From a virus (Duplodnaviria; Caudoviricetes), in the IMG/VR virus record IMGVR_UViG_3300031857_000254, positions 1 to 53,562 of that record: a stretch of DNA of 53,562 bases, one strand, 5' to 3'. This document shows, one piece after another, positions 33,652 to 49,195 of this stretch. Position 1 is the first letter of the stretch. Every line of letters starts with the position of its first letter. The translations under genes were made by a program, and so were the position numbers. Below the pieces are notes generated by a model, which was not told the DNA's origin, ran no database searches, and saw nothing but the letters and a program-made list of their open reading frames with translations.

Positions 33652-33839
33652 CAGTTGAGCCCCTTCATTGCAGCGCCAGTGTGAAGCGCGTCCTCGGCAT
33701 CGCTGGTGTAATAGGCGACTGCCTCCTCCCGTGCCGGTGATAGGTCGGGCAGCGTCACCCGATACTCTTGCCAGTCCCGCGAGTAGGTGGCCTTGCATCC
33801 CATTGCCTTAAGCTGGGCCAGTGTTTGCTTGATGCTCAT
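33651..33839 (-). CDS. Hypothetical protein, first gene of the leftward operon
   Basis: EYRV..YYTSDAEDA; AAGGA RBS before ATG 33839. Confidence 0.7.
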   Translation of the reverse strand: MSIKQTLAQLKAMGCKATYSRDWQEYRVTLPDLSPAREEAVAYYTSDAEDALHTGAAMKGLN

Positions 33840-33902
33840 GTTGTGTTTCCTTAGAACTGTGCCGAGGGATACGCCGCGGCTCGCTGGGCATCTCGCCCGC
33901 CG

Positions 33903-34030
33903 CAATTAATCTCAGATGTCAGCAGCTATGTCAACAGCTATGTCATCAATTAAACACCAGGTCGAAAACCGGATACATCACAGTGCAATGTGAGCCTGGA
34001 CTTGTTGGAAATCACAGCGCAATGTGACAT
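33903..34030. promoter_or_regulatory. Divergent control region with tandem repeats and palindromic operators
   Basis: Three 12-bp ATGTCANCA(G/A)(C/T)T units containing a minus-strand TTGACA; two TCACA-N6-TGTGA palindromes. Confidence 0.6.
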
Positions 34031-34267
34031 TGACCGCCAGAAATCAGGGCAGGTCGGCCCCAGCTGCAGCCAGACACCCCCACCCACCCACTTTTGGCAG
34101 GTTATGGGTATTTTATATCTATATATACCCACTCCCACCCACATTTTCCGCCAAAACAGTTTGCCTTCTTGGCCGACCCCCCACCCCCTGATATGACCCC
34201 CTTTGTTCTAATCGCTGGCTCCATAAAAATTTATATATTGTTTTAACTTGGATGATGATTATAAAGG

Positions 34268-34804
34268 ATGGATATGGATTGGGATGATGACGATTTTGGG
34301 TTGGGTTCGCTGATCAGCGAGGGTGCTGAAGTTGCGATGCGTGAGGACCGTGACTTGGTTTTTGCGCGTGAGTATGTGCGTTTGAAGGCGGTGAAGTCGA
34401 AGAACGCTGCTGAGCTGGCGTGCGTCCGGGCTGGGATTACGAATCCTGAGTATCACATCAAGGTAGTTGCGGAGCGGCAGCTGGCGCGTGTGGAGGTTCA
34501 GCGGCTGATTGCTGAGGCTGAGACTTCCGGGCTGACGATTGAGCGGACGGAGTACACGCGGGATTTGTTTTTGGATGAGCTGCAGGCGGTGCATGAGCGG
34601 GCGTTGGATGCGAAGAATTTCACGAGTGCGATTAGTGCGGTGAAGACGCAGGCTCAGTTGCTGGGGATGATGGACCAGACGGTGAATATCAATCACACGG
34701 TGACGGCGAAGGATCTGGATTTGCAGACGTTAAGAGCGATGGTTGCTGACCGGGCGAAGCCGGTGGCGGTTATTGAGGCGGATTATAGGGAGGTTGAGGG
34801 ATGA
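34268..34804 (+). CDS. Putative terminase small subunit
   Basis: FAREYV..AELACVRAG HTH-like region; SAISAVKTQAQLLGM; lies upstream of terL. Confidence 0.7.
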   Translation: MDMDWDDDDFGLGSLISEGAEVAMREDRDLVFAREYVRLKAVKSKNAAELACVRAGITNPEYHIKVVAERQLARVEVQRLIAEAETSGLTIERTEYTRDLFLDELQAVHERALDAKNFTSAISAVKTQAQLLGMMDQTVNINHTVTAKDLDLQTLRAMVADRAKPVAVIEADYREVEG

Positions 34805-35049
34805 AGATTAATCAGGCGTTTTTGCGTGGATTTACGGGTGACGGCGATAAGCTATGTACGCCGCTGACCATAATTGGGGATGAGAACTCAATCACGCTGA
34901 CCAAGGGCGAGGGCTTTGACGAGTGGTTGGCGGATGACACCGAGATTGTTCTGCACGACGGTACTGAGACTACCTACACCGCCCAGAACCAAGAGGCGCT
35001 TCGCAGGATTGTGGCGGCATGGCTTCATGGTGAAGAGTTCGAGGGGTGA
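34801..35049 (+). CDS. Hypothetical protein
   Basis: 82 aa; ATGA-coupled. Confidence 0.6.
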   Translation: MKINQAFLRGFTGDGDKLCTPLTIIGDENSITLTKGEGFDEWLADDTEIVLHDGTETTYTAQNQEALRRIVAAWLHGEEFEG

Positions 35050-35210
35050 TATATATCCGCGACGAGGGGCAGCTGATTCGCAATGGGATTAACGTGTACC
35101 CGCGTCGATCCAGCAGTGTTGGGTTTATCGTAGCTCTGGGCCAGCGGCGTTGGATGCTGCGTTATTCGCGGGTTTTGGGTCGGCTGTATTGCACTGTGGT
35201 GGCGCGATGA
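35046..35210 (+). CDS. Hypothetical protein, 54 aa (not in ORF track)
   Basis: GTG start overlapping upstream TGA; stop overlaps terL ATG. Confidence 0.5.
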   Translation: MIYIRDEGQLIRNGINVYPRRSSSVGFIVALGQRRWMLRYSRVLGRLYCTVVAR

Positions 35211-36739
35211 ATCCTGACCTATCGATGGATGACTTGCTGGCGGAGCTGGTGGCCCGCGAGGAGGCGATGGCATCGTTTGCGGCGTATATTGAGTATGTGA
35301 GCGGGATGAAGCCGCCGCCGCACTTGAAGCTGATTTGCGACAAGCTGGACGAGGTGGCGAACGGTAAGATTCAGCGGCTGATGATCTCGATGCCGCCGGG
35401 GCATGGTAAGTCGTTTGCCGCGTCGCATTACTTCCCGGCCTATTACTTGTCGAAGAACCCGACGAAGAATGTGATCTTTGCGACGCACAAGCAGGAGCTG
35501 TCGGATTCGTTCGGTCTGAAGGTTCGTAACGTGATCAAGGGCGACGAGCATCGGCGCTTGTTCCCGGATGTGGGTATTAGTGCGGACAAGACGGCTGCGG
35601 GCGAGTGGATGACGACGCAGGCTGGTGGTTATCACGCGACGGCGGTTGGCGCGAACGTGACGGGTCGGCGCGGGGATATATTGATTGGGGACGATTTGCT
35701 GTCGGGTATTCAGGCGGCGGAATCGGACAGTGAGCGGAACAAGCTATGGGCATGGTACGGTGCGGATTTTTTCACGCGCCGTAAGAACAAGGACACGCCG
35801 ATCATCCTGATTGGAACGCGCTGGCATCTGGGGGACCACATGGGTCGCTTGGATCAGGGCGAGCGGGATGGTGAGGGCGAGAAGTGGGAGCGGGTGATTT
35901 TGCCCGCGCTGGCGGTGGATAACGACATTTTGGGGCGTGAGCCCGGAGATGCACTGTGGCCGGAACAGTTCCCGAAAGAGGAACTGGAGAAGATCCGCCG
36001 CCAGCCTTCCACGACGAGCCGCATCTGGTCGTCGCTGTATCAGCAGAATCCGGTTGTGGATGATGGTGGTATTATCGATCAGACGTGGTTCAAGTGGTGG
36101 CGGTCGCCCGATCCGCCGGAGGTGAAGTATGTGATACAGGCGTGGGATACGGCACTGACGGCGAACAAGACATCGGCGTATAGCGCGTCAACGACGTGGG
36201 GCGTGTTTGATGACGATAACGGGATACCGAATCTGATATTGCTGTCGGTGTGGCGCGACCGTGCGGAGTGGCCGATACTGCGGCGAATGGTGCAGCGGAT
36301 GGCGACGGATTACCGGGACGATAACTACCGCACGCCGATCAAGGCATCGAAGAACCGGATGCCGGATACGGTGCTGGTGGAGGCGAAGGCGAACGGTCAG
36401 ATGCTGATTCAGGATTTGGGCCGTGCAGGAATTGTTGCAACGCCGTTTAATCCTGATAAGTTTGGTGATAAGATAGCGCGTGTTCGTCTGGTTACGGATT
36501 TGATCGAGAACGGGCGTGTGTGGTTGCCGGCGATGAAACCGGCGTATGATCAGTTGAGGCCGTGGGCGCGTGACTTTATGGAACAGTGCGTTCAGTTTCC
36601 AGCGGCTGATTCGAGGGACTGGGTTGATACGATGACGATGGCGTTTTTGCGGGTCAAGCAGTCTGGGTGGGTTCACAATACCGAGAACCCGTATGAAGAG
36701 GTTTATGACGTACCGCTTGAACGCGCATCGTTTTATTGA
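35207..36739 (+). CDS. terL: Terminase large subunit
   Basis: MPPGHGKS Walker A, TGRRGDILIGDD Walker B, GTRWH, LYQQNP, QAWDTA nuclease Asp, EAKA.G, D.VDT. Confidence 0.95.
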   Translation: MNPDLSMDDLLAELVAREEAMASFAAYIEYVSGMKPPPHLKLICDKLDEVANGKIQRLMISMPPGHGKSFAASHYFPAYYLSKNPTKNVIFATHKQELSDSFGLKVRNVIKGDEHRRLFPDVGISADKTAAGEWMTTQAGGYHATAVGANVTGRRGDILIGDDLLSGIQAAESDSERNKLWAWYGADFFTRRKNKDTPIILIGTRWHLGDHMGRLDQGERDGEGEKWERVILPALAVDNDILGREPGDALWPEQFPKEELEKIRRQPSTTSRIWSSLYQQNPVVDDGGIIDQTWFKWWRSPDPPEVKYVIQAWDTALTANKTSAYSASTTWGVFDDDNGIPNLILLSVWRDRAEWPILRRMVQRMATDYRDDNYRTPIKASKNRMPDTVLVEAKANGQMLIQDLGRAGIVATPFNPDKFGDKIARVRLVTDLIENGRVWLPAMKPAYDQLRPWARDFMEQCVQFPAADSRDWVDTMTMAFLRVKQSGWVHNTENPYEEVYDVPLERASFY

Positions 36740-36750
36740 TAGGAAGCATA

Positions 36751-39102
36751 ATGGCCCGTAAACCAATGACACTCGAAGATACGCTGCGTCCCCAGTTTGA
36801 GGGGATTGGCGGCGTTGACGTTGACATGCCTGAGGGCGACGCGGAATACGAAATCGAAATGGGCGGCCCTGAGATGGTCGATGGCGCTGAGATCACCGAA
36901 TTGGATGATGGCGGCGTTGAGATTGATTTTGAACCATCGGAAGATGAAGAAGAAGAAATCACGCACGAGTCGAACCTCGCGCTGTACATGGACGATATGG
37001 ACCTAAATGGTCTGGGTGAGATGCTGCTAAGCGGCGTTGAGGAAGATAAACAGAGCCGCAGTGAGTGGGAAACCACGATGTCTGAGGGCATCAAGCTGAT
37101 GGGCCTGAAGATCGAAGACCGCCAGACGCCGTTCAAGGGGGCGTGCGGCGTTTACGATCCGCTGTTGGCTGAGGCTGTGGTGCGCTGGCAGGCTGTGGCT
37201 TGCGGCGAGCTGTTACCGGCTGCTGGTCCGGTTAAGACGCAGATCACGGGCGTTGCGAACGAGCAGTTGGAGGCGCAGGCGTCGCGGGTTAAGGACTTCA
37301 TGAACCTTTACCTTACGGAATTGGCCCCTGAGTTCTACGAAGAGTTCGACCAGATGCTGTTCTGGTTGGCGCTGGTGGGTTCGACGTTCAAGAAAGTTTA
37401 TCAGGATCGGCTGCTGGGACGCCCGGTGAGCCGATTTGTTTTGCCGGACAACTTCATTGTTTCCTATGGCACGACTGATTTAGAGACATCGCCACGTTTC
37501 TGCCACATTACGCCGATGACGCGCCGGAATTTCCGCTTGGCGCAGCTGGCGGGTGTGTATCGCGATATCAAGGTTGGCGATCCGCAGCCGGATGATGAGG
37601 GCCAGAGCCCGATTCGCGCAGAGGTTGACGGCGTTCAGGGCGTTGAGCCGGGCGCGGAAGGCACGGAAGAGTATCGGATCTATGAGGTTTATGCGGATCT
37701 GAACCTCGAAGGCTTTGAAAACGAGGATGGTATTCCTCTGCCGTATATCGTGACGATTGATGAGGGGACTCGCAAGGTTCTGTCGATCTATCGTAACTAT
37801 GAAGAGGGTGATCCGACGTTCAAGCGTCAGGATTGCTTTGTTCACTATAAGCTGATGCCCGGCGTTGGCTTTTATGGCCTTGGCTATGCGCATTTGTTGG
37901 GCAACTCGGCGAAGACGGCGACATCGATCCGTCGTCAGCTGATTGACGCTGCGACGCTGAACAACTTCCCCGGCGGCTTGCGCGTTAAGGGCATGCGCCT
38001 CGACGACAATAACATTGGGATTGGCCCGACTGAGTTCCGTGAAATTGACACGGGCGGTATGCCGATTCAGAACGCGATCATGACGATGCCGTATAAGGAA
38101 CCTTCGCAGGTTTCTTTGGCGCTGCTGAAGGAAACGTATGAGAGTGCGCGGAATCTTGCCAACACAGCCGAAATTGCGGTGGGTGAGGGCAGACAAGATG
38201 CTCCAGTTGGAACGACTGTGGCTCTTATGGAAGCGGCAACCCGACTCCAGTCGGCGACGCTCAAGCGGTCGCATAAGGCGTTCAATCGGGAACTGAAGAT
38301 GATTGCGAATTTGTTTGGCAAGTATCTGCCAGACGAACCGTATCCATTCCCAGTTCGCGGCGGCATGTCGGCGATCATGCGCGAAGACTTCTCGGACAAC
38401 ATCGACGTTATTCCTGTCAGCGACCCGAACATTTCGTCGTCCGCGCAACGCATGATGCGTGCGGAAGCTCTATTGCGTTTTGCGACACAGCAGCCTGACC
38501 AGCACAATCTGCGCGCAGCCTATCGTCAGATGTATGTCGAGATGGGAATTGACGAAGAGAAGATTGAAATGCTCCTGTTGCCTGAGCAAGAGAAGCCGAA
38601 GCCGCTGGATCCTCTGTCTGAGAACCAGAATGCACTGACGGGCAAGCCATTGGTGGCCGGCGCGTATCAGGATCACGACGCACACATCGCGGCGCACGCC
38701 CCGATTGCTGAAGAGAACCCAGCGCTGCAGGCGCACATCAACGAGCATTTGGCCCTGAAGATGCGCTTGCAGGTTGAGCAGATCATTGGCCAGCCGTTGC
38801 CGCCTCCGGGCCAGCCGCTGCCGCCTGAGATTGAGAACCAGCTCGCGGTTATGGTTGCACAGGCCATGCAGCAGCTTGCGCCATCCTATAAGCCACAGCC
38901 TCCGGGCCCTGACCCAATGGTTCAGATTGAGCAGATGAAGGTTCAGCAGCGCGATGCTGACAGCAAACTTGACGCCCAAGTCGAAATGACGAAGGCGCAA
39001 ATAGAAGCACAGACTGACGCGGAAGACCGTGCTTCGAGAGAGCGGATTGCAGCAATGAAGCTCCAGTCCGAAGCCCTGCGTAATAATGGAGGTTTTCAAT
39101 GA
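36751..39102 (+). CDS. Portal protein
   Basis: About 783 aa after terL; GSTFKKVY, PGVGFYGLG, APVGTTVALME, IPVSDPNI. Confidence 0.88.
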   Translation: MARKPMTLEDTLRPQFEGIGGVDVDMPEGDAEYEIEMGGPEMVDGAEITELDDGGVEIDFEPSEDEEEEITHESNLALYMDDMDLNGLGEMLLSGVEEDKQSRSEWETTMSEGIKLMGLKIEDRQTPFKGACGVYDPLLAEAVVRWQAVACGELLPAAGPVKTQITGVANEQLEAQASRVKDFMNLYLTELAPEFYEEFDQMLFWLALVGSTFKKVYQDRLLGRPVSRFVLPDNFIVSYGTTDLETSPRFCHITPMTRRNFRLAQLAGVYRDIKVGDPQPDDEGQSPIRAEVDGVQGVEPGAEGTEEYRIYEVYADLNLEGFENEDGIPLPYIVTIDEGTRKVLSIYRNYEEGDPTFKRQDCFVHYKLMPGVGFYGLGYAHLLGNSAKTATSIRRQLIDAATLNNFPGGLRVKGMRLDDNNIGIGPTEFREIDTGGMPIQNAIMTMPYKEPSQVSLALLKETYESARNLANTAEIAVGEGRQDAPVGTTVALMEAATRLQSATLKRSHKAFNRELKMIANLFGKYLPDEPYPFPVRGGMSAIMREDFSDNIDVIPVSDPNISSSAQRMMRAEALLRFATQQPDQHNLRAAYRQMYVEMGIDEEKIEMLLLPEQEKPKPLDPLSENQNALTGKPLVAGAYQDHDAHIAAHAPIAEENPALQAHINEHLALKMRLQVEQIIGQPLPPPGQPLPPEIENQLAVMVAQAMQQLAPSYKPQPPGPDPMVQIEQMKVQQRDADSKLDAQVEMTKAQIEAQTDAEDRASRERIAAMKLQSEALRNNGGFQ

Positions 39103-39635
39103 AGATGACTGACTTGCGGGCGAAAGCTCGTGCAATTTTCGGCCCAGCAATCGCTGAGCCTATGCCTAAACAACCCAATGGCGCGAAGGCGCTTCAGGAG
39201 CGTGCAAACGCCCGTCCTATCCCGACCTATAAGGTTGGCGGTGCTGTAAAGAAGAGCATGCCTCCTCAGCCGACTGCAGCTGAGCGTGAAGCAGATCGCA
39301 AACGTCGCGAAGAGTATGCGAAGATGAAGGTGTCGAAGGAACAGGGTGCAGCCATTACCCGTGGTAATCGCGCCGCTGACATTGAAGGTGGTCGCTATAA
39401 GGATGGCGGCAAGGTTCAGACATCGGCTGACACTGCCAAAAAGCTGGCCACAGAAATGGGCGGCATGAAAAAGGGCGGCAAGGCAAAGAAGGATGGCCTC
39501 GCTGTCATGATTGCTATTGGTGAGCCTAAGAAGCCAGTTAAAAAAGCTGCTGGCGGCGCTGCCAAGGTTCGCAAGGGCATGATGACACCTGAAGGTAAAA
39601 TTACGCACGCCATGAATAAGATGCGCGACAAGTAA
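39099..39635 (+). CDS. Basic protein with repeated xKxGG motifs
   Basis: 178 aa; YKVGGAV, YKDGGKV, MKKGGKA, KAAGGAA. Confidence 0.8.
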   Translation: MKMTDLRAKARAIFGPAIAEPMPKQPNGAKALQERANARPIPTYKVGGAVKKSMPPQPTAAEREADRKRREEYAKMKVSKEQGAAITRGNRAADIEGGRYKDGGKVQTSADTAKKLATEMGGMKKGGKAKKDGLAVMIAIGEPKKPVKKAAGGAAKVRKGMMTPEGKITHAMNKMRDK

Positions 39636-39734
39636 CAGGGGCCGCGACCGTGCCTTAACAGTGCGGTCGCGACTACCTAACCCTAGCAGAAGGTGGGCAA
39701 AGACTCGCCGCTGCAAAACTACCGGAGAATAAAA

Positions 39735-40016
39735 TTGAGCGCAGAGGAACTAAGCCGCAGAGCGGTTGAGCGTATCAGTGAGCTGCGAGATCGCGCCACA
39801 GAATACTCATTAAATGCACGTTTTAGGCCGTCCAGCCAAGGGGAGAAATACTTCCCGGCATCGACGGCGGAAGAGATTGCCCTTCAGGTTCTGGAGGGGA
39901 ATGCGTTGGTGCGTGGCTATACAGCTGCAATTCAGGTCATTGCCGACGAGTATAAACGTATGATGCAGCCTGACGATGATAAAATACCGGAACAAAAAAC
40001 AAGGAGTCATTACTGA
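39735..40016 (+). CDS. Hypothetical protein (TTG start)
   Basis: GGAG RBS then TTG 39735; helical 93 aa upstream of groES-like gene. Confidence 0.65.
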   Translation: MSAEELSRRAVERISELRDRATEYSLNARFRPSSQGEKYFPASTAEEIALQVLEGNALVRGYTAAIQVIADEYKRMMQPDDDKIPEQKTRSHY

Positions 40017-40474
40017 TGAGCATGAGTAACATTGAGCCGCATGAAGAAGAGCTTGCGAAGCAATTCATAGACGGGCATTTTGTGGAGATGACGGGTCAGC
40101 CGTTTGATATGCGCCCAGCTGGGTATCTTGTGGCTGTAAAAATTTACATCCGCCCTGAAGAGCTGAAGACGATCAAGAAGGAAGACGGCACGGAAGTGAC
40201 GCTTTACCTGCCAGACACGGTTCGCGCTGAAGATAAGTTCTCATCGGTTTCGGCTTTGGTATGCGCTGTTGGACCGGAAGCCTATCAGGGTGAGAAGTTC
40301 GAACGCTCTGGGCCTTGGTGCAAGGTCGGGGACTGGATCCTGATCCCACGCTATGAATCGACAATGGTTTCTTATCGCGGCGTTGCAATGGCGCTTCTGC
40401 CTGATGATCGCGTTATGGCGGTTATCACTGGCCCAGAAGATGTCGAATCAGGCAAGGCTGCTAATAATTATTAA
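40016..40474 (+). CDS. groES: GroES-like co-chaperonin
   Basis: RPAGYLVAV, LYLPD mobile loop, VCAVGPEAY, WCKVGDWILIPRY, LLPDDRVMAVI. Confidence 0.85.
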   Translation: MSMSNIEPHEEELAKQFIDGHFVEMTGQPFDMRPAGYLVAVKIYIRPEELKTIKKEDGTEVTLYLPDTVRAEDKFSSVSALVCAVGPEAYQGEKFERSGPWCKVGDWILIPRYESTMVSYRGVAMALLPDDRVMAVITGPEDVESGKAANNY

Positions 40475-40484
40475 GGAATAGAGC

Positions 40485-41510
40485 ATGGATGAAGAAAACG
40501 AAATTCCAGAACTTCCGTTGACGGAAGAGGGGCCCACCGAAGACATCGAAATTGAGATAACCGAAGACGATCTTGGTGAAAGCCTCGCGGATTACGAGGA
40601 AGAAGAATCCGAAGAAACCGTTGAGGAAGAAGAGCCTGAGGAAGAAGAAGAACCCGAAGAAGAGCCTGAAGAAGAGGCCCCGAAGCGGAAGCGTTCACCT
40701 GACAAGCGAATAGCTGAGCTGGCCCGCAAGGCCGCTGACGCTGAGCGCCGTGCGCAGGAAGCTGAGTCTCGCCTGCAGAACGAAGCCCAGATGCGTCAGC
40801 AATCTGACTTCGCCATGATGACGCACTACAAGAACAACCTCATCAACGAGGCTGGTGCGGTCAAGCAGAAGCTCATGGATGCGCATTCTATGGGCGACAG
40901 CGAACAGATTGTTGAGCTGCAGAGCATTTACTACAAACTGCAGAATGATCTGGCCGGCGTTGAGAACTGGGAAGCTGAGCAGAAGGTAACAGCTCCAGAG
41001 GTGCAAAAGCAAGCGCAGCCAAAGGCCCAGCCTCAGCCTTCGCTTGAGCCGCGCACAGCTGGATGGATTCAGAAGAACGAGTGGTTTCAGCCACAGTCTC
41101 CTGAGTTCGATCCTGAGATGCACGAAGAGGCAACGCTGTATGCACGCCGCATCGAGCGTCGGTATCGTTCTGAGGGTCGTGACGACGAAATCGGTGGCGT
41201 TGATTACTTCACGGAAATCGACCGTCACATGCGTAAGGAATACCCTGACGCATTCTCAGCCGTATCAACCCCAAGCAAGAGAACTCCACCGATGTCTCGT
41301 GAATCTAATGTTGCCCCTGTCCAGCGCAGCGCGCCAAACCAGCAAGGCAAAAGCGCCAAGACCATACGACTAACAGCCGATCAGCGCCGCATGGCACACC
41401 AGTTGGCCCAGTCTGGGGCTATTCGCAATCAGAAGGGAGGTCGCATGACCGATCTTGAGGCGGAAAAATATTACGCAGTTCACATGATAAAACAGAGTAA
41501 AGGATCTTAA
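40485..41510 (+). CDS. Putative scaffolding protein
   Basis: Very acidic N-terminus, KRIAEL coiled coil, W..KN.WF, IRLTADQ; lies between portal and capsid. Confidence 0.7.
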   Translation: MDEENEIPELPLTEEGPTEDIEIEITEDDLGESLADYEEEESEETVEEEEPEEEEEPEEEPEEEAPKRKRSPDKRIAELARKAADAERRAQEAESRLQNEAQMRQQSDFAMMTHYKNNLINEAGAVKQKLMDAHSMGDSEQIVELQSIYYKLQNDLAGVENWEAEQKVTAPEVQKQAQPKAQPQPSLEPRTAGWIQKNEWFQPQSPEFDPEMHEEATLYARRIERRYRSEGRDDEIGGVDYFTEIDRHMRKEYPDAFSAVSTPSKRTPPMSRESNVAPVQRSAPNQQGKSAKTIRLTADQRRMAHQLAQSGAIRNQKGGRMTDLEAEKYYAVHMIKQSKGS

Positions 41511-41512
41511 TA

Positions 41513-41992
41513 ATGGCACGAGCATCAAGAATCTCGCAGAGCCGAGCAGCAGAATCACGCGAATCCAGCATGCGCAAGCGTCCTGAAACGCACTTCCAAT
41601 CCAAACTATATGTTCCGAAGGACAAAATCCCTGCGGGCATGACATACGCTTGGGTTCGCGAATCAACCCTCAACGAACCCGATCCCGACAACATGACGGA
41701 TCGCATGATTAAGGGCTGGGCTCCAGTTCCTGCGTCACGCCACCCTGAGATGGTCCCTCCTCCCCTTCCCGGCTATGAAGGCTTGGAAGTGCAGGTTATC
41801 CGTCGCGGCGGTCTAATGCTCTGCGAATGCCCGACACGGGACGTTCAGGAGCGTAACGAAGATCGCGATCTGGAAAACATTGAAACCTTGCAAGACGTGG
41901 CATGGACTGGTCAGAGCGACCCGAACCTTCCGCGCTTTGAAGACAAAGACAGTGGCGTCTCGTTCGAGCGCGTCACGTCATTTAAGGATTAA
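41513..41992 (+). CDS. Conserved head-module protein
   Basis: PAGMTYAWVR, GWAPVPA..HPE, GGLMLCECP. Confidence 0.75.
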   Translation: MARASRISQSRAAESRESSMRKRPETHFQSKLYVPKDKIPAGMTYAWVRESTLNEPDPDNMTDRMIKGWAPVPASRHPEMVPPPLPGYEGLEVQVIRRGGLMLCECPTRDVQERNEDRDLENIETLQDVAWTGQSDPNLPRFEDKDSGVSFERVTSFKD

Positions 41993-42034
41993 CCTCCGGC
42001 CACAGCGTTATTTCCCCTTGCGCTGTGGGAACTT

Positions 42035-42069
42035 CCCTCCGCTCACTCAACTGGGCGGGGGGTTTTTTT
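42035..42069 (+). terminator. Rho-independent terminator
   Basis: CCCTCCGCTCA-loop-TGGGCGGGGGG followed by T7; a second hairpin CCACAGCG/CGCTGTGG lies just upstream. Confidence 0.75.
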
Positions 42070-42075
42070 ATGTTG

Positions 42076-42104
42076 TTGACGCAGGTGTTGAATTGAGTTA
42101 GTTC
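42076..42104 (+). promoter_or_regulatory. Putative promoter for the capsid operon
   Basis: TTGACG-17-TAGTTC immediately after the terminator. Confidence 0.5.
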
Positions 42105-42110
42105 TGATGT

Positions 42111-42232
42111 CCTCGACGCAGGTCACGTATCCTGCACCTCGATAGTGGTCACGTACCCACTCCTACGGCGGGTAGCCGATTCGATGTCGCGTCACGTATC
42201 GCGTCACCTAGCAGGCAGGTTAAAGCCGAATC
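42111..42232 (+). ncRNA. Structured leader: three hairpins with identical UCACGUAY loop
   Basis: GCAGG/CCTGC, AGTGG/CCACT and CGCG/CGCG stems around TCACGTA(T/C), each preceded by TCGA. Confidence 0.7.
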
Positions 42233-42257
42233 ATTCATTTTAGCATGGAGAAACCGT

Positions 42258-42854
42258 ATGTCTTACGGAACGAATGCGCCAAATGGTTTTCAGCCCGTCA
42301 AAAAACTTGATGGATCTGCTTGGACTGGCGCGACAAACCCTTACGAGATTGTTACCACCTACGCGACTGCCATTTTCCGTGGCGATCCTGTCACCGTTGC
42401 AAACACAGGCTACCTTCAGGTTGGCGTTGCAGGCTCCGCTTGCGTTGGCGTCTTCTGGGGTGTCAAGTACACCGACAGCACTGGCGTCGTAAAGTTCATG
42501 AACTACTGGCCGGGTAATCCGGGCGTTCTCACCGGCTCGACCGTTGAAGCTCTCGTGATTGATGATCCAGACACAGTGTTCTCGATTCAAGAAACAAGCG
42601 GCACCGGCACTGCTGGCACTCCGCTGGCACTTGCTGATCGTGGCCTGAACATCAACTTCCTTTACACTGCTGGTTCGACTTCGACGGGTTCGTCCGCCGT
42701 TTCGATCAACAACGCAACGGAAGCCGACACCAGCACGCTGAACTGCAAAATCCTCCAGCTCGACCCGACTCCGGGTAACGCTGTTGGCGCTTTTGCTAAC
42801 TGGCTCGTTGTCCTCAACAACCACCTCTATCGTGGCGGCGTGACCGGCATCTGA
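42258..42854 (+). CDS. Putative capsid decoration/minor capsid protein
   Basis: 198 aa beta-rich; AIFRGDPV, GVFWGVKYT, VIDDPDTVF; directly upstream of MCP. Confidence 0.7.
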   Translation: MSYGTNAPNGFQPVKKLDGSAWTGATNPYEIVTTYATAIFRGDPVTVANTGYLQVGVAGSACVGVFWGVKYTDSTGVVKFMNYWPGNPGVLTGSTVEALVIDDPDTVFSIQETSGTGTAGTPLALADRGLNINFLYTAGSTSTGSSAVSINNATEADTSTLNCKILQLDPTPGNAVGAFANWLVVLNNHLYRGGVTGI

Positions 42855-42877
42855 TAAGCCAGTAGGGAGAATTTAAA

Positions 42878-43783
42878 ATGGCTATTAATACAACCGCAAT
42901 CCGCGATCTGCTCCGGCCCGGTTTGGCCGCCGTTTTTGGCGACTATCCGATGTACCCCGGTCAGTGGTCGGAAATCTTCGAGAAGCACACATCCGATAAG
43001 GCTGTTGAAATCGAAGTCGAAGTCAAGCTGCTTGGCTTGGCGCAAATCAAGGCAGAAGGTGCCTCGACCGCTTACGGCGAAATGGGTCAGCGCTATGTAA
43101 CGAACTATGTAAACCGTTACACCAGCATTGGTTTCATCATCACCCGTCAGGCGATCAAGGACAACTTGTACCAATCGTCGTTCCCACTGCAGGCGAAGGC
43201 TCTTCGTCAGTCGATGGAACAGACCAAAGAAGTTCTCGGCGCATCCGTTTTGAACAACGGCTTCTCGTCGAACTTCCCAATTGGTGACGGCCAGCCACTG
43301 TTCTCGACGGCTCACCCCATCGAAAACGGCACGGTTGCCAACACCTTCTCGGTACAGGCTGACTTGAACGAAACGTCGCTTCAGGATGCCATCGTTGGCG
43401 TTCAGCGCTTCCGTGATGCTGCGGGCCTCCGCATCATGACGAAGCCTACAAAGCTCATCGTTCCAGCCGAACTGCAGTGGACCGCGACTCGCTTGCTGCA
43501 ATCGCAGTTCCGCGTCGATACGGCGAACAACGACATCAACGCGATCTATAACAACTCGGCGGTTCCGCAGGGTCATCGCGTCAACATGTTCTTGACGGAC
43601 ACGAACTCGTGGTTCTTGCTCACCGACGCTCCAAACGGCTTCAAGCACTATGAGCGTGAAGCTCTCGAAACCGATGTCTACACGGACTTCGACACCGACA
43701 ACCTCAAGGCGAAAGCCATTGAGCGTTATTCGTTCGGCTGCTCGAACTTCCGCGCAGGCTGGGGTTCACAGGGCGCTTCCTAA
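42878..43783 (+). CDS. Major capsid protein
   Basis: LLRPGL..VFG, KAEG, GDGQPLFSTAHP, LIVP, FLTDTNSWFLLTD, ERYSFG; HK97-fold (Mu gpT-like) pattern. Confidence 0.9.
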   Translation: MAINTTAIRDLLRPGLAAVFGDYPMYPGQWSEIFEKHTSDKAVEIEVEVKLLGLAQIKAEGASTAYGEMGQRYVTNYVNRYTSIGFIITRQAIKDNLYQSSFPLQAKALRQSMEQTKEVLGASVLNNGFSSNFPIGDGQPLFSTAHPIENGTVANTFSVQADLNETSLQDAIVGVQRFRDAAGLRIMTKPTKLIVPAELQWTATRLLQSQFRVDTANNDINAIYNNSAVPQGHRVNMFLTDTNSWFLLTDAPNGFKHYEREALETDVYTDFDTDNLKAKAIERYSFGCSNFRAGWGSQGAS

Positions 43784-43792
43784 TCGGACTCT

Positions 43793-43815
43793 GGGGGTGG
43801 CATCCGTCACCCCCT
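43793..43815 (+). promoter_or_regulatory. Intergenic hairpin after MCP (pause/stability element, no U-tract)
   Basis: GGGGGTGGC-ATCC-GTCACCCCC. Confidence 0.6.
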
Positions 43816-43832
43816 AACTATGGAGAAAATTT

Positions 43833-44498
43833 ATGACTCACTTCTCTGATGGTGTCCGGGTTGGGCGTAGCTTCAGCCTCAATGGGGCCGCTCCGATTCC
43901 GGGTGCCCCCATGTCTCCGATGTTCGTCTATGACGTTACTCCGGTGGCTTTGGATGCAGATGGCATCTGCGCTCAGCAGACGCTTGCTGCGGCAGGCAAT
44001 GCCCTGATCAACGGTGCTTTGGCATCCAGTGGCGTTGTAACCCTCGACGTTCCTCGCAACGTCATTGTTGACGCTGCCGGTGCGGCTACTGCTGTTCTTA
44101 CGGTTACTGGTACGGACGTTTATGGCGTTCCGATGTCGGAAGCTATCACCCTGAATGGCACGACTGCTGTTGCTGGCAAGAAGGCATTCAAGACAATCAC
44201 CAGCGTAGCAGCTTCGGCTGCAGCCACCGATTTCTTCGTTGGCACTGGCGATGTGTTTGGTCTTCCTTTCCGCTCGGATAGCCGTAACTACTGCTTGACC
44301 GCTTGGAACAGCGCATTTGTTACGACTGGCACGTTTGTGGCAGCTGTAACGACCGACCCCGCGACCACCACTACTGGCGACGTTCGCGGAACCTACGCGG
44401 TTCCAGACGCAGCTGATGGCTCTAAGCAACTGACTGTTTGGATGTTCATTGAAAATCCAGACTCAGTGACGGGCCTCTATGGCGTGACACAAGCCTAA
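43833..44498 (+). CDS. Structural protein (head fibre/decoration-like)
   Basis: MTHFSDGV start; Thr/Ala/Gly-rich beta; GTGDVFGLP, TTGDVRGTY. Confidence 0.7.
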   Translation: MTHFSDGVRVGRSFSLNGAAPIPGAPMSPMFVYDVTPVALDADGICAQQTLAAAGNALINGALASSGVVTLDVPRNVIVDAAGAATAVLTVTGTDVYGVPMSEAITLNGTTAVAGKKAFKTITSVAASAAATDFFVGTGDVFGLPFRSDSRNYCLTAWNSAFVTTGTFVAAVTTDPATTTTGDVRGTYAVPDAADGSKQLTVWMFIENPDSVTGLYGVTQA

Positions 44499-44503
44499 TG
44501 ATT

Positions 44504-44525
44504 GGGGCGGCCTTCGGGTCGCCCT
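44504..44525 (+). promoter_or_regulatory. Intergenic hairpin with cUUCGg tetraloop
   Basis: GGGGCGGCC-TTCG-GGTCGCCCT. Confidence 0.6.
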
Positions 44526-44543
44526 AGTTACATGGAGACGGTG

Positions 44544-44795
44544 ATGCGGGCGAAGAAGGACTTTCAGTTTAAGGCGAAGCATAAGAACCCCAAGGGCGGT
44601 CTCAACGAGGCTGGTCGTAAGGCGTATAATGCAGCCACTGGATCGAACCTTAAGCGTCCGCAGCCGGAAGGTGGCTCTCGTCGTGATAGCTTTTGTGCCA
44701 GAATGAAGGGCATGAAAAAGAAACTGACATCCGCCGAGACCGCCAAAGATCCGAATAGTCGGATCAACAAATCACTCAGAGCGTGGAACTGTTAA
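44544..44795 (+). CDS. Small basic protein (DUF6321-like)
   Basis: KNPKGGLN..GR, RRDSFCARM, SLRAWNC; GGAG RBS. Confidence 0.8.
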   Translation: MRAKKDFQFKAKHKNPKGGLNEAGRKAYNAATGSNLKRPQPEGGSRRDSFCARMKGMKKKLTSAETAKDPNSRINKSLRAWNC

Positions 44796-44796
44796 C

Positions 44797-44976
44797 ATGC
44801 GTGGAAAAAAGAATTTCATTGCTGAGGCTATCAAGAAGCCCGGCGCACTTCGTAAAGCGCTTGGCGCTAAAGCTGGAAAGCCTATCCCCGCAGGAAAGCT
44901 GGAGGCAGCCGCTAAGGCACCCGGTAAAATGGGCCAGCGCGCACGCTTCGCTATGACACTTAAAGGAATGAAATAA
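44797..44976 (+). CDS. Small basic protein, 59 aa (not in ORF track)
   Basis: MRGKKNFIAEAIKKPGALRKALG..GQRARFAMTLKGMK; TAATG-coupled. Confidence 0.8.
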   Translation: MRGKKNFIAEAIKKPGALRKALGAKAGKPIPAGKLEAAAKAPGKMGQRARFAMTLKGMK

Positions 44977-45377
44977 TGGCTGACGCAGTTAATTCCCAGA
45001 CTCTATTTGACGGCGAAAGCCAAGCCGTCATGAAGTTCAATAACGTGTCCGATGGCACGGGTGAGAGCGCTGTTCTCAAGGTTGATGTATCAGCTTTGAC
45101 TGCGAACAATGTCGGAAAGGCATGCTCTGCCGTTTCAATTCGTCGGATTACAGCGATGGTTAACGGCATGTCGGTTAACCTCCTGTGGGATGCAGATACT
45201 GACGTGAGCGCGGTTATTCTTGCTCCGGGCATGTACACCCTGAACTTTGATGACACAGCTATTCTGGGCAACAATGCCGGCACGGGTAAGACTGGCGACA
45301 TTCTTTTCACAACCGTCGGCGCTTCGTCCGGCGACACATACAGCATCATCCTTGAGATGATCAAAACTTACGCCTGA
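44976..45377 (+). CDS. Hypothetical structural protein
   Basis: MADAVNSQTLFDG..SDGTGESAVLKVDVS..TGDILFTT. Confidence 0.75.
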   Translation: MADAVNSQTLFDGESQAVMKFNNVSDGTGESAVLKVDVSALTANNVGKACSAVSIRRITAMVNGMSVNLLWDADTDVSAVILAPGMYTLNFDDTAILGNNAGTGKTGDILFTTVGASSGDTYSIILEMIKTYA

Positions 45378-45389
45378 TAGGAGTTTATT

Positions 45390-45677
45390 ATGATTCTTCG
45401 TAGATACACAAACGCAAATGGTGACCAGCAGGAAATCAGCCTTTCTCAAGAAGATTGGGAAAAGGTGACTGAAGAGTCGCTTGAAATGATGCTCGGCTTT
45501 AAGGATGCGCCTGAACCTGCTGCTGAGGCCGCTGTCGTTGAGGAAGCTCCCGTCGTTGAAGAGGCTCCTGCCGCTGAAGAAGCGCCAGTTGTCGAAGAAG
45601 CCCCTGCTGCTGAAGAGGCCCCCGTCGCTGAAAAAGCGGCAGTTGTCGCAGAAGCGCCTGCCAAAAAGGGCAAATAA
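45390..45677 (+). CDS. Hypothetical protein with acidic hexapeptide repeat
   Basis: GGAG RBS; EEAPVV/EEAPAA tandem units. Confidence 0.75.
   Translation: MILRRYTNANGDQQEISLSQEDWEKVTEESLEMMLGFKDAPEPAAEAAVVEEAPVVEEAPAAEEAPVVEEAPAAEEAPVAEKAAVVAEAPAKKGK
45535..45660 (+). repeat. 18-bp coding tandem repeat
   Basis: About 7 degenerate units encoding EEAP(VV/AA). Confidence 0.75.
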
Positions 45678-45841
45678 TGCGCGGGAAAAAGGAGGTTTGG
45701 GAAAAGCCACGGCCCAAAGGTCTTGGCTCACCCAAACCTTTATCATCTTCTCAGAAGCAAAAAGCTAAAGCCATTGCCAGCAAGTCAGGGAGCAAGTATC
45801 CTTCGCTGGTAGCAAACATGCAGGCGGCGAAGAAAAAATGA
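45677..45841 (+). CDS. Small basic protein, 54 aa (not in ORF track)
   Basis: MRGKKEVWEKPRPK..KAKAIA..YPSLVANMQAAKKK; coupled at both ends. Confidence 0.75.
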   Translation: MRGKKEVWEKPRPKGLGSPKPLSSSQKQKAKAIASKSGSKYPSLVANMQAAKKK

Positions 45842-46521
45842 CCACTAGCGGCACGTACACATTCGGTGACACCGAACAGATCGATATCATCACTGAGGCG
45901 TATGAGCGCGTCGGTCGGCTTCCGTCTACGCTTGCGTCCAATGACATCGATAGTGCGCGCCGCTCCATTAATTACATGTTCTCCGACTGGGCCAACAACG
46001 GCCCAAACCTGTGGGCTGTGGATCTCCAGAGCATCACTCTGACTCCGGGCACACTGTATTACGAACTTGAGCCGCGCACGGTTTCAATCCTTCAGGTGTA
46101 CACGCGCACCACATCTGGTGGCATAAACACTGACCTGATGATGTCGCCGATTAGTCGGGCGGAATACGACGCGATTCCAAACAAGGCGCAGCTTGGCCAG
46201 CGCCCTTTCCAATACTATTTTCAGCGCACCATCACTCCACGCCTGTATATTTGGCAAGCTCCGCAGGATGCTGGCGTTACGCTATTTTATCACCGCATGA
46301 AAATCCAAGAGGATGCCGGTGACTTCACTGATAGCATGGATGCGCCAAACCGTTGGATGGAGGCTATTGCCGCCGGCCTTGCCGCTAAGCTCGCGGTGAA
46401 GTTTGCGCCGGATCGCCTTAGTTTCCTTCAGGGTTTAGCGGATAGTTCATACGAACGCGCCGCAGCCGAAGATCGCGAAAAGGTTCCGCTTCGTATCACC
46501 ATTAATCCTTGGGGCTACTAA
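45838..46521 (+). CDS. Putative head-tail adaptor
   Basis: MTTSGTYTF, IITEAYER.G, ARRSIN..WAN.G.NLW, RP.QYY, GLAAKLA. Confidence 0.7.
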   Translation: MTTSGTYTFGDTEQIDIITEAYERVGRLPSTLASNDIDSARRSINYMFSDWANNGPNLWAVDLQSITLTPGTLYYELEPRTVSILQVYTRTTSGGINTDLMMSPISRAEYDAIPNKAQLGQRPFQYYFQRTITPRLYIWQAPQDAGVTLFYHRMKIQEDAGDFTDSMDAPNRWMEAIAAGLAAKLAVKFAPDRLSFLQGLADSSYERAAAEDREKVPLRITINPWGY

Positions 46522-46871
46522 TGCAGTACGGATTCGGACGCGGTAAAAAACATCGGACGCAACCGAAGTTTGCCGTAAAGTCGCCGCAGGGTCTTGCGAT
46601 ATGTGACGGCTGCGGCTTTATGGTTCAGCACACGGAGCTGCGTCAGAAGCAAGACTATCGTGGTGGCTCAGTGCCTGTTGGCCTTAGCTTGCGCGTTTGC
46701 GCCTCTTGCGATGATGTACCGCAGCCATATTTTGGCCGCTTACTTCTACGAGCCGATCCTATACCACTGCAAAATCCTCGTCCAGATTCACAGGACGCAC
46801 AAACGAATGCGCAAGAAGCGGCTGCCAATGCAGTTTCTTTATATCTCAACCAGCTTTATGGATTATCATAA
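46521..46871 (+). CDS. Small CxxC..CxxC zinc-binding protein
   Basis: AICDGCGF..LRVCASC..QP..DP..L.NPRPD. Confidence 0.75.
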   Translation: MQYGFGRGKKHRTQPKFAVKSPQGLAICDGCGFMVQHTELRQKQDYRGGSVPVGLSLRVCASCDDVPQPYFGRLLLRADPIPLQNPRPDSQDAQTNAQEAAANAVSLYLNQLYGLS

Positions 46872-47581
46872 TGGCAAATAAAAAAATCACAGACCTCACG
46901 GCGGCCACAACTCCACTCAGCGGCAACGAGCTGCTGGAAGTCGTGCAATCTGGCAGCAGTGCTAAGGCAACCGCTACATCGATTGCGAACACGTTCAGTA
47001 GCACACTGGGCGTCGCCAATGGCGGCACCGGGGCAACCACCCTCACGGGATATGTAAAGGGCAGCGGAACATCAGCAATGACGGCGGCTGCGACAATCCC
47101 TTATGCGGATGTGGCTGGCCGGGCTTACATTTCTGCGTATGATAGCACAGATCAAACTGGCAGCGTTTCGGCTGCCACTGCGATAAAACTTGCATCAACG
47201 TCTTTCAGCTCAGGCATAACCATTGCGAATAACGGAAGCGGAGATCCAACGCGGATTACATTTGCTGTCGCCGGCACATACGCAATAATGCCAAGCCTAC
47301 AGTTCGCCAACTCTGATGCAAATGATCACGAAGTTAATATCTGGTTCCGTAGAAACGGCACTGATATAGCTAACTCAAATACGGTAATCAGCGTTCCAAA
47401 GGCAGCTGATGGCGGTAATACATTCTTCCAGATTGCCCTGTACGAACAGGTGACTGCCGGCCAATACATTGAGGTTATGTGGCTGCCTGTGAACACGAGC
47501 GTCACGCTTGATTACATTGCCGCTGGGGCAATTGCTCCCGCAGCGCCCTCCGTCATTATCTCGTCTGAGCGAATCGCATAA
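46871..47581 (+). CDS. Fibre/appendage protein
   Basis: MANKKITDL N-terminal motif; VANGGTGA repeat; C-terminal beta-sandwich (AGTY..W.R.NG). Confidence 0.7.
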   Translation: MANKKITDLTAATTPLSGNELLEVVQSGSSAKATATSIANTFSSTLGVANGGTGATTLTGYVKGSGTSAMTAAATIPYADVAGRAYISAYDSTDQTGSVSAATAIKLASTSFSSGITIANNGSGDPTRITFAVAGTYAIMPSLQFANSDANDHEVNIWFRRNGTDIANSNTVISVPKAADGGNTFFQIALYEQVTAGQYIEVMWLPVNTSVTLDYIAAGAIAPAAPSVIISSERIA

Positions 47582-47943
47582 TGATTGAGCAGCTCATCTC
47601 TCGCGTATTTTACGCCCGCAACCTCGCTCACTTTGCGCACTGGCGCGCCAAGGGTGATGGTAGCTATGCCAAGCACAAGGCACTGGGGAAGTTTTACGAT
47701 GGCGTAATCGATGCGATTGATCCGTTGGTCGAGGCTTACCAAGGCGCATATGAGCTGATCGGCGCTATTCCAGTTCCCGGTGAAATGGAGAAGGATATTC
47801 TGAAGTGCCTTGAATCCGATGCTGCTTGGATTGAGGCCAACCATGAGAAGATCTGCAAGGGCAACCGAGCCGTTGCGAATCTGATTGACACGCTGACCGC
47901 CGTATATCTCTCTGCAATCTATAAGCTGCGGAACCTCAGATGA
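47581..47943 (+). CDS. Dps/ferritin-like four-helix protein (DUF5856-like)
   Basis: HFAHW..YAKHKAL..FYD..D.LVEAYQG..YKL. Confidence 0.75.
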   Translation: MIEQLISRVFYARNLAHFAHWRAKGDGSYAKHKALGKFYDGVIDAIDPLVEAYQGAYELIGAIPVPGEMEKDILKCLESDAAWIEANHEKICKGNRAVANLIDTLTAVYLSAIYKLRNLR

Positions 47944-48170
47944 TGGATACCGGCACCCTCTTTACCATTCTCGGCTTCGTCATCACCGCCTTGAGCTTTA
48001 TAGGGGCTTTGATAACCGTCTGGGTTAATCTTACCAATAAGCTGACGCTGCTTGAGGCGCGTCTCGGCTTTGGCGACGAGAAATTCAACGCCATCGATAA
48101 AAAGTTTGACGAGGTAATGATGCACCTCCGACGCATTGAGGATAAACTGGACAACAAGGCGGATCGGTGA
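47940..48170 (+). CDS. Small membrane protein with coiled coil (holin-like)
   Basis: One TM helix then RIEDKLDNKAD. Confidence 0.6.
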   Translation: MMDTGTLFTILGFVITALSFIGALITVWVNLTNKLTLLEARLGFGDEKFNAIDKKFDEVMMHLRRIEDKLDNKADR

Positions 48171-49195
48171 TGAATAAAAGGTATTGGGTTCTTGTGTCTC
48201 TCGGCTGGTGTAGCATGGCGCTTGCGCAGACCGCTCCGGTGTCTGTGGCCCCGACCGAATACGTCTACACCACGACAACAACCAGCACATCGGACAACAA
48301 CAATACGTCCACCAGCACGAATACGAACAACAACAACAACAATTCGACCAGCACATCGACGAACACGAATAACAATAACAGCACGTCTGCCAGCACGTCG
48401 GTAAACACCAATACGAACTTCAACACCAGCGAAAGCACTAGCACGTCGGTCAACACGAACAACAACGTGAATGCCAGCACGAGCACGTCGCTGAACACGA
48501 ACAACAATAACAACGTCAGTTCGTCAACCAACACCAACATAAATCAGAACACTGGGACGATGACCAACATCAACCAGAATACGAACATAAATTCTGGCAC
48601 GATGACGAACATTAACCAGAACACCAACGCCAGCACATCCGAAAATACGAACCGCAATTTTAATACGGATGTCAGCAACAGCACCGTAAATCAGACGGTC
48701 AACAGCACCGTCAACACGAACAACACGAACAACGACACCAGCACGATTAACCAAACGACAAGCAGCGATAACCGCAACGTTAATCAGAACAACAACGTCA
48801 ACGTCTCCGACAGCAAAAGCTACAGCGAGAGCGTTAATCGTCAGGTTATCGACCAGAATATTAAGTCGCCACCGCCCAGCGCCATCGCGCCGTCGATGAT
48901 GTCCTACAGCCAAGACCTTTGCACCACCGGCCAGTCTGGCGCAGTGCAGACGCAGATTATTGGCCTCTCGGCAGGCCGCACCGTGCGTGATCAGAACTGC
49001 GAGCGGATGAAGCTGTCGAAGACCCTGTACGACATGGGTATGCGCGTCGCCGCCGTGAGCCTCCTGTGCCAAGACCCCCGCGTATTCGGCGCGATGGAGA
49101 TGGCTGGCACGCCCTGCCCCTTCATGGGTTTGATTGGCGAGGAAGCCCGCGCCGCGTGGACCGAGAACGTCGAGCTTCGCCCTGTCGAGGACTAA
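48167..49195 (+). CDS. Secreted Asn/Thr/Ser-repeat protein with Cys-containing C-terminal domain
   Basis: Signal peptide ending ALA-Q; about 190 aa N/T/S repeats; PPPSAIAP..C..NCER..LCQD..GTPCP. Confidence 0.8.
   Translation: MMNKRYWVLVSLGWCSMALAQTAPVSVAPTEYVYTTTTTSTSDNNNTSTSTNTNNNNNNSTSTSTNTNNNNSTSASTSVNTNTNFNTSESTSTSVNTNNNVNASTSTSLNTNNNNNVSSSTNTNINQNTGTMTNINQNTNINSGTMTNINQNTNASTSENTNRNFNTDVSNSTVNQTVNSTVNTNNTNNDTSTINQTTSSDNRNVNQNNNVNVSDSKSYSESVNRQVIDQNIKSPPPSAIAPSMMSYSQDLCTTGQSGAVQTQIIGLSAGRTVRDQNCERMKLSKTLYDMGMRVAAVSLLCQDPRVFGAMEMAGTPCPFMGLIGEEARAAWTENVELRPVED
48268..48830 (+). repeat. Low-complexity coding repeat (aac/acg/agc codons)
   Basis: STSTNTNNNN-like units; duplicated GTMTNINQNTN. 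Confidence 0.85.

Follow-up and report, generated by a model that had tools for sequence, protein, structure and literature searches.

What are three small hairpins, with one loop sequence on differing stems, doing in the leader of the capsid genes of an uncultured freshwater phage? The hairpins lie in IMGVR_UViG_3300031857_000254, a Caudoviricetes record that is linear, about 98% complete and 53,562 bases long; this whole stretch was analysed and is called the window below. On its + strand, between a promoter and the genes for a 198-aa protein, probably a capsid decoration protein, and for the major capsid protein (MCP), three units occur within 42113-42206, each made of a CGA, a G-C-closed stem of 5-7 bp and an 8-nt loop TCACGTAY. 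Comparison with the leaders of related phages supports the conclusion that these hairpins are under selection for pairing around a fixed loop. As to what they do, we consider the chances about even that they form a hairpin operator at the 5′ end of the capsid mRNA, which would be read by a sequence-specific trans-acting factor setting the stability or translation of the message.

The three units have the coordinates and sequences given in the original prediction, which was made from the letters of this DNA alone. Bit scores and E values are those of a covariance model of the unit.

42113-42135, + strand: unit 1, with TCGA at 42113-16, a C, the stem GCAGG/CCTGC at 42118-22/42131-35 and the loop TCACGTAT at 42123-30 (38.1 bits, E 1.8e-8; -8.5 kcal/mol).
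42139-42161, + strand: unit 2, with TCGA at 42139-42, a T, the stem AGTGG/CCACT at 42144-48/42157-61 and the loop TCACGTAC at 42149-56 (23 bits, E 3.2e-4; -5.2 kcal/mol).
42181-42206, + strand: unit 3, with TCGA at 42181-84, the stem core CGCG at 42188-91/42200-03 and the loop TCACGTAT at 42192-99 (32.4 bits, E 7.3e-7; -7.1 kcal/mol).

Stem sequences differ among the units of one genome. The stem of unit 3 extends to seven positions, TGTCGCG/CGCGTCA (42185-91/42200-06), with one T.T mismatch, and this helix is 90.7% paired in 20 distinct related leaders. The string TCACGTAY occurs five times on the two strands of the window, where 1.92 would be expected (sd 1.44) and five of 100 shuffles reach that count; three of these occurrences fall within 77 bases of the leader, and the remaining two (20705 on the + strand and 50745 on the - strand) have no flanking stems. 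Since single hairpins are modestly stable when folded as individual sequences (z -0.7 to -2.5), the case for them rests on comparison.

A search of viral contigs with the MCP returned 203 relatives, and the best 80 of the 203 were used, all with 97-100% MCP identity and with flanking DNA 70-93% identical to that of the window. They provided 67 leaders (53 distinct), every one of which has the same units on different stems. Stricter two-loop patterns added 20 and 78 stretches and brought in distant phages (L235, L101, L149 and L100) whose 198-aa proteins are 56-72% and whose MCPs are 65-90% identical to those of the window, so that the array persists down to 56% and 65% identity, respectively. 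From 144 loci with 240 bases upstream of the gene, 78 distinct leaders were obtained; three units were detected in 62 of them and two in the other 16, some of which may hold a third, as the detector misses bulged stems. The units were aligned as 96 distinct sequences, a 97th (L074:2755-2786) having been dropped as a false positive in the promoter region. In this alignment 80.2% of cells are paired, against 48.4% after shuffling (none of 500 shuffles reaches the observed value) and 34-47% with the partners shifted along; the covariation score reaches 0.715, versus 0.172, and all seven stem pairs show changes on both sides. An unbiased count gives the same picture: within the 78 leaders T-N-ACGTA-Y is flanked by at least four consecutive pairs in 91 of 100 distinct contexts, whereas on both strands of these loci and of the window, leaders excluded, this holds for 2 of 51. 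Of the nine exceptions, read by eye, six or more turn out to be these hairpins carrying a bulged T, and three, which are not units, belong to the promoter.

The 96 units carry 21 distinct 5-bp stems, and in the wider set 33 distinct arm pairs keep their pairing across relatives, which bears out the covariation around a fixed loop that had been proposed from the three copies of one genome. Loop positions T1, A3, C4 and G5 are invariant (96/96), T6, A7 and the closing G-C pair are kept in at least 90%, position 2 takes any base except G and position 8 either pyrimidine. There are 12 loop variants; the loop has 9 nt in 7 units, and TTACGTAY, which makes a 6-nt palindrome, accounts for 16. The CGA, which was no selection criterion, stands 9 or 10 nt before the loop in 94 units and 8 nt before it in the other two; because the preceding base varies, it is CGA and not the palindrome TCGA that is conserved. 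When RNAalifold was applied to a MAFFT alignment of 38 whole leaders, none of the hairpins was recovered, because their stems were misaligned. The variable copy number and spacing fit units that are independent binding sites, and not parts of one precisely folded RNA.

Our survey found the array at one place only. The unit model detects the three units and nothing else in the window (next match 12.3 bits, E 0.35), and one cluster in each of 10 related records, three of which are at least 90% complete. Dispersed repeats (REP/RAYT, IS200/IS605 ends, CRISPR-like) were considered and rejected, there being one cluster per genome with differing stems in the window and these 10 records. Among 86 further viral loci with the two-loop pattern, 82 have a homologue of the 198-aa gene starting 80-180 nt downstream; three of the remaining four end at a contig end and one (L210) is an unrelated direct repeat. 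A looser two-loop pattern yields mostly chance hits, with model matches at 6 of the 78 new loci listed. In bacterial and archaeal genomes, one for each of 185,579 species, the two-loop pattern occurs in nine stretches, of which four are the same phage on short contigs of metagenome-assembled genomes (MAGs) and the other five lack a model match; that no host copies of the pattern were found argues weakly for a phage-encoded partner. The four phage contigs (L291, L296, L297 and L299) were binned with two Actinomycetota MAGs (three contigs) and an Alphaproteobacteria MAG (one contig), which may be a weak host hint at best, or a binning artefact. The Rfam search proposed with the original prediction returned no family for the hairpins: with Rfam 15 at gathering thresholds the whole window has no match, and at E up to 10 the six weak matches on 41990-42300 all lie on the terminator region at 41990-42077. 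An exact-word full-text search found no description of the motif in open-access papers or bioRxiv. The phage lineage itself is found in many freshwater metagenome and RNA libraries.

The position of the array within the leader is informative as to what it may be attached to. The features around the units, all on the + strand, are the following.

42000-42028, + strand: first hairpin after the stop of the 159-aa gene, CCACAGCG / CGCTGTGG (read from the sequence; relatives keep a hairpin here with other sequences).
42035-42069, + strand: intrinsic terminator ending the gene block from portal to 159-aa gene (stem 42035-42062 of 11 pairs, 8 of them G-C, then TTTTTTT).
42076-42104, + strand: predicted sigma70-like promoter, with -35 TTGACG at 42076-81, a spacer of 17 nt and -10 TAGTTC at 42099-104 (kept in relatives).
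42166-42178, + strand: small accessory hairpin CGGC-GGGTA-GCCG, lying between units 2 and 3 (in 20 distinct leaders 97.5% of its cells are paired).
42214-42227, + strand: element GGC-AGGTTAAA-GCC after unit 3, in the long leader type only (three pairs invariant in 20 distinct leaders).
42247-42260, + strand: Shine-Dalgarno GGAG at 42247-50 and ATG at 42258-60 of the 198-aa gene.
42258-42854, + strand: gene for the 198-aa all-beta protein, probably a capsid decoration or cement protein (phrog_37556, function unknown; predicted fold).
42878-43783, + strand: gene for the MCP, 301 aa (phrog_371 major head protein, E 6.5e-17; tblastn matches on annotated MCPs).
43793-43814, + strand: G+C-rich hairpin directly after the MCP stop and just before the Shine-Dalgarno sequence of the next gene, with no T run (relatives read by eye).

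The 159-aa gene upstream ends with its stop codon at 41990-92, and the terminator at 42035, which is present in related leaders, is the strongest on the + strand in 32000-50000. The capsid promoter was not listed by a simple promoter scan because its -10 is weak; TTGAC[AG]-N16-17-TAnnTn occurs in 46 of the 47 related leaders that have sufficient upstream sequence. The first unit begins 8 nt past the -10 TAGTTC, and in 66 of the 78 distinct leaders 36-41 nt separate the C of the first CGA from the T of TTGAC upstream, the distances in the other 12 stemming from missed first units or from another TTGAC. This fixed distance puts the first unit near the start of transcription, which, judged from the position of the promoter, would be expected within a few nucleotides of the unit. 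At the other end, the start of the last loop precedes the ATG by 42-48 or 60-70 nt, with 25-60 nt from loop to loop; in the window the array ends about 40 nt before the GGAG and no unit overlaps the Shine-Dalgarno sequence. Because the distance to the promoter is fixed and that to the ribosome-binding site (RBS) is variable, the array is tied to the promoter or 5′ end and not to the RBS. Leaders hardly vary in the stretch that leads up to the start codon (…ACTTYAGCATGGAGA…ATG), and ...GCATGGAGA...ATG is almost unchanged in 38 of them.

In the accessory hairpin two of the four pairs have changed on both sides. It competes with an outer helix, GATTCG (42178-83) with CGAATC (42227-32), that had been thought able to close a larger domain around unit 3; the two segments are complementary, but in the 20 distinct related leaders they are 65-83% paired and the changes break pairing instead of compensating, so that comparison does not support this helix. 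The invariance of the pairs in GGC-AGGTTAAA-GCC speaks neither for nor against pairing there, and several variants of a motif like GGC-RGGTWAA-GCC turn up in related leaders, both between the hairpin units and behind them. Two further candidates were rejected. Pairing of the CUCC after unit 2 with the GGAG, which would mask the Shine-Dalgarno sequence, is by eye not conserved in short leaders. The units are not intrinsic terminators or attenuators either, as no T run follows any of them and a terminator scan lists none at 42105-42257. In four related leaders (L259, L244, L091 and L069) the hairpin loop of the terminator upstream contains the -35 TTGAC, and the terminator's T run doubles as the -10 region, a very compact overlap of terminator and promoter. 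A weak promoter-like site on the - strand at 42264-42237 would drive antisense transcription through the hairpins; such sites number 8 against 10.9 expected from shuffles, and this one is probably due to chance.

Is RNA or DNA the active molecule? Leader and gene are joined on contigs from freshwater RNA libraries (42124-43035, X5; 42135-43417, X4, from the same study as X5; 42194-42391, X9), in line with the proposal that the leader is transcribed into the 198-aa gene. The interval 41664-42118 has no cover in any of four RNA runs, an absence that carries no weight in contig data, and contig starts were rejected as a proxy for that start, since the 11 contigs beginning at most 300 nt upstream do so at scattered places. 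We infer that RNA rather than DNA is the active form, because the motif is asymmetric and always sense-oriented between promoter and RBS, because pairing of the arms is conserved and their sequence is not, because the motif is found at no other locus of the searched genomes, and because the RNA-library contigs cover the leader. A free-standing small RNA, the other form considered in the original prediction, is not indicated, because no terminator separates the array from the coding region, into which it leads directly.

According to the operator reading, the host RNA polymerase would transcribe the decoration-MCP mRNA from the promoter just past the terminator, and each unit (5′-CGA, stem of 5-7 bp and loop U-N-A-C-G-U-A-Y) would be a separate, putative recognition site. 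A factor, most likely a protein and probably phage-encoded, would occupy the two or three sites at the 5′ end, and occupancy would set the lifetime of the capsid mRNA, its translation, or both, and through them how much of the two most abundant virion proteins is made, and when. That the site is read by a sequence-specific partner is suggested by the invariant loop and CGA on freely changing stems, in two or three modular copies, and since the array is placed 5′-terminally, away from the RBS, control of mRNA fate (stability or access of translation) is favoured. The original prediction had proposed a multivalent protein-binding RNA element; its pairing around a fixed loop, its placement between promoter and RBS and its single locus hold, while protein binding, and autoregulation or antitermination as its effect, keep the standing of proposals. 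A wider version of the idea, which we put forward tentatively and hold to be rather less than an even bet, is that of a hitherto undescribed phage regulatory pair, the 5′-terminal CGA-stem-UNACGUAY array and a dedicated phage factor, which together would protect the mRNA, license its translation or load onto the polymerase for read-through. The array would have come in with terminator and promoter, in a cassette whose arrival divided an ancestral head-gene operon in one lineage of abundant freshwater phages.

Several observations weigh against the operator. The hairpins stand off the RBS at variable distance, so that simple occlusion of the RBS is unlikely. The leader as a whole folds no better than its shuffles (z 0.70), and the 100% pairing at the four inner positions is in part a product of how units were picked, namely by having at least four pairs. 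No RNA-binding domain, sigma factor or RNA polymerase was found by Pfam in 44 of the 82 predicted open reading frames (ORFs), or by PHROGs in 25 proteins. Assembled contigs show no 5′ end, and DNA in the libraries could contribute to them. The complementary strand folds at least as well as the sense strand, and wobble pairs do not discriminate between the strands: the five innermost pairs of the units include 30 G.T against 3 C.A, with 22 of the 30 coming from one stem type, at the sixth pair the counts are 22 and 20, and a list of arms made by eye has about 8 with G.T and about 6 with A.C. As for candidates for the partner, a search for genes whose presence and absence follows that of the hairpins met with fragments of the distant hairpin-bearing relatives that cover head genes only. 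Proteins of 221 and 120 aa are common to hairpin-bearing relatives only, and nothing links either to RNA.

Several known systems can be compared with the operator. CsrA/RsmA target leaders and sponges likewise have several hairpins with one conserved loop motif on free stems and a multivalent protein; here, by contrast, none of the 12 loop variants contains GGA, no site lies on the Shine-Dalgarno sequence, and the motif was not found in bacterial genomes outside the phage. The operators of MS2 and PP7 coat protein and of T4 RegA are phage hairpins read by loop sequence and stem shape, but they are single and overlap the start site, whereas the two or three copies described here are 5′-terminal and stand 42-70 nt away from the ATG. 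Autoregulation of the P22 scaffolding protein is similar in being a post-transcriptional control of the level of a morphogenetic protein; its RNA target is not known to have been defined, and the gene here is decoration-like, not a scaffold gene.

Another possibility, the main rival and in our estimate an unlikely one, is that the array is a loading site for processive antitermination, of the lambda nut/boxB-N type or the protein-free put type of HK022, in which the nascent hairpins, alone or via a small phage protein, would stay on the RNA polymerase and let it read through past the hairpin behind the MCP gene and about 30 kb of structural genes. Lambdoid boxB elements have a 5-bp stem and a 5-nt purine-rich loop, and keep the loop sequence while their stems differ. 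The likeness to lambda nut is that of a short promoter-proximal hairpin in a phage leader RNA, and the array does follow the promoter directly and at a fixed distance, with the distance to the RBS variable. It is also followed by a long + strand gene block (42258 to the window end, continuing at 1-18298) and by a conserved G+C hairpin after the MCP gene; a gene annotated as RfaH-like in a hairpin-less relative suggests that such operons need control of elongation, and PMC4496710 describes NUT RNA as a tether for N or Nun near the elongation complex. On the other hand, no strong + strand intrinsic terminator occurs in 42100-50000. The 8-nt loop U-N-A-C-G-U-A-Y is not the GNRA-like pentaloop of boxB, two or three tandem copies stand at one locus where nut has one hairpin at each of two loci, and where nut has boxA, the units have a 5′ CGA, 9-10 nt ahead of the loop, no boxA-like sequence being seen by eye in 42105-42257. 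HK022 put consists of cis-acting hairpins just downstream of a phage promoter as well, but put is a fixed pair of stem-loops, and the near-identical repeat units described here vary in copy number and spacing. The family scans turned up no N-like protein; none of the several small basic ORFs of the window has a family assignment, and N proteins are too short and diverse for family libraries to exclude.

It could also be that the array needs no partner at all and acts in cis as a 5′ element, by protecting the 5′ end from host nucleases or by being cut at the CGA during processing, with the ACGU core serving kissing contacts between hairpins or mRNAs; we hold this to be decidedly improbable. The array does lie at the predicted 5′ end and, with the hairpin after the MCP gene, brackets the decoration-MCP message, much as the stabiliser in the ompA leader is a 5′-end structure on a very abundant message, and ACGT is self-complementary, the palindromic TTACGTAY loops (16/96) even more so. 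However, stabilisers need no conserved loop: protection demands structure only and leaves the invariance of U1, A7, Y8 and the CGA unexplained, most loops (N = C) would give a kiss of only 4 bp, and we know of no host nucleases with such loop specificity. Were DNA the active molecule, the hairpins would be extruded from single-stranded or supercoiled DNA, or T-N-ACGTA-Y would be a duplex site for a transcription regulator of the capsid promoter. We give this little credence. The sites do lie within about 100 bp downstream of the promoter, both strands can form the hairpins, the wobble counts are compatible with DNA, and another repeat, containing GTCACG, marks a control region at 31.8-32.2 kb; that repeat, however, lacks ACGTA. 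A reader of duplex DNA would conserve the sequence of the arms and not their complementarity, and 33 different arms pair; the motif is asymmetric, with CGA on one side, and always in gene sense; and the family scans turned up neither a phage RNA polymerase nor a HUH-type nuclease. The domain recognised in the 1830-aa protein of the window is ddrB-ParB and not a polymerase. There is only a slim chance that the array is a decoy on an abundant late mRNA, mimicking a host RNA such as an anticodon-type stem-loop and titrating a host RNA-binding enzyme or defence nuclease. Several identical loops on a presumably very abundant phage transcript, a 5-bp stem with a G-C closing pair, and ACG and CGU triplets in the loop would suit such a sponge, but the loop has 8 nt and not 7, the position equivalent to U33 is not kept, and the array was found in no other transcript of the phage.

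To return to the operator, and to where it may have come from, relatives with 28-47% MCP identity keep the gene order of ~160-aa gene, 198-aa gene and MCP; they include the pelagiphages HTVC023P and HTVC027P, DSL-LC04, CRP-901, an Alcaligenes phage, Pag-Yong1 and Manatee Spring viruses. In 8 of 9 such relatives the gap between the ~160-aa and 198-aa genes is only 13-78 nt, and the unit model had no match on the loci of five of them. Nor did it match at 26 more distant viral loci, in which the gap is at most 56 nt in 14 of 16 distinct cases. Since relatives at or below 47% MCP identity are without the cassette, the combination of terminator, promoter and hairpins is an innovation of one clade. 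The ninth relative, MW202675.1 (L085), has at 438-691 a tRNA-Met, a terminator, a TTGACA-N17-CATTAT promoter and a leader of ~100 nt with three copies of CYCGGU, partly in small hairpins, and no UNACGUAY unit; this may be an analogous leader with another specificity. In MW202785.1 (L309), the hairpin-less relative mentioned above, the gene annotated as an RfaH-type transcriptional activator lies at 29242-29790, upstream of the structural genes, and the genome also carries an annotated integrase.

Downstream of the array, the two genes that it precedes appear to be bracketed by structures at both ends. Read by eye, most of 62 distinct sequences downstream of the MCP gene have a hairpin of changing sequence, such as GGGGGTGGGGC-TTCG-GCCCCACCC, which, to judge from its position, may be a 3′ stabiliser or boundary of the decoration-MCP mRNA, or a partial terminator. 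For the 198-aa product, the AlphaFold2 model is all-beta (pLDDT 83.4), and its nine best structural matches are decoration or cement proteins with Z of 5-7.5, which is middling, in a consistent set; the matches include proteins of HFTV1, BB1, FCWL1, T1, TW1, Sf11, Pam3 and SHP, with lambda gpD at rank 12, and Foldseek gives E of 0.014-0.3 for matches to such proteins. From this modelled fold the product is probably a capsid decoration or cement protein.

In the window at large, head and tail genes occupy the + strand, and the - strand carries recombination and replication genes (RecT, YqaJ, helicase, primase-like). Between the early genes of the - strand and the genes of the + strand lies a large non-coding region at 31700-32300, which probably holds the early promoter/operator or an origin. 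A motif like AAAATGTCACGGA is repeated there five times or more, with copies on both strands, and is accompanied by related TGTGACAAG repeats and by an AT-rich block, TATATATA; this cluster is part of the reason why the window has more GTCACG than expected (41 against 27.1). The gene at 9783-15275 encodes a protein of 1830 aa with a ddrB-like ParB superfamily domain at residues 775-889 (E 1.8e-33), which from its sequence looks like a large polyvalent, possibly injected, protein. Single-stranded DNA hairpin promoters of the N4 type, which have a 3-nt loop, were rejected for the units, whose loops have 8 nt, and a virion polymerase of the N4 type was not found either: in the libraries used, the largest virion-type proteins have no polymerase family and the 1830-aa protein has no PDB sequence match.

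Hairpin operators in phage leaders are a known kind of element; this motif, its tandem arrangement at the 5′ terminus and the clade that carries it are absent from Rfam. The array is thus a well-supported structured RNA candidate in the capsid-gene leader of a freshwater phage lineage, and it offers a testable handle on how an uncultured phage that depends on the host polymerase sets the level or timing of its most abundant proteins. If a partner is found, a small hairpin with an 8-nt loop and free choice of stem would make a compact orthogonal RNA tag. Comparison with the relatives that lack the cassette also shows how this regulation arose, in a clade that inserted a terminator, a promoter and a hairpin array between two head genes.

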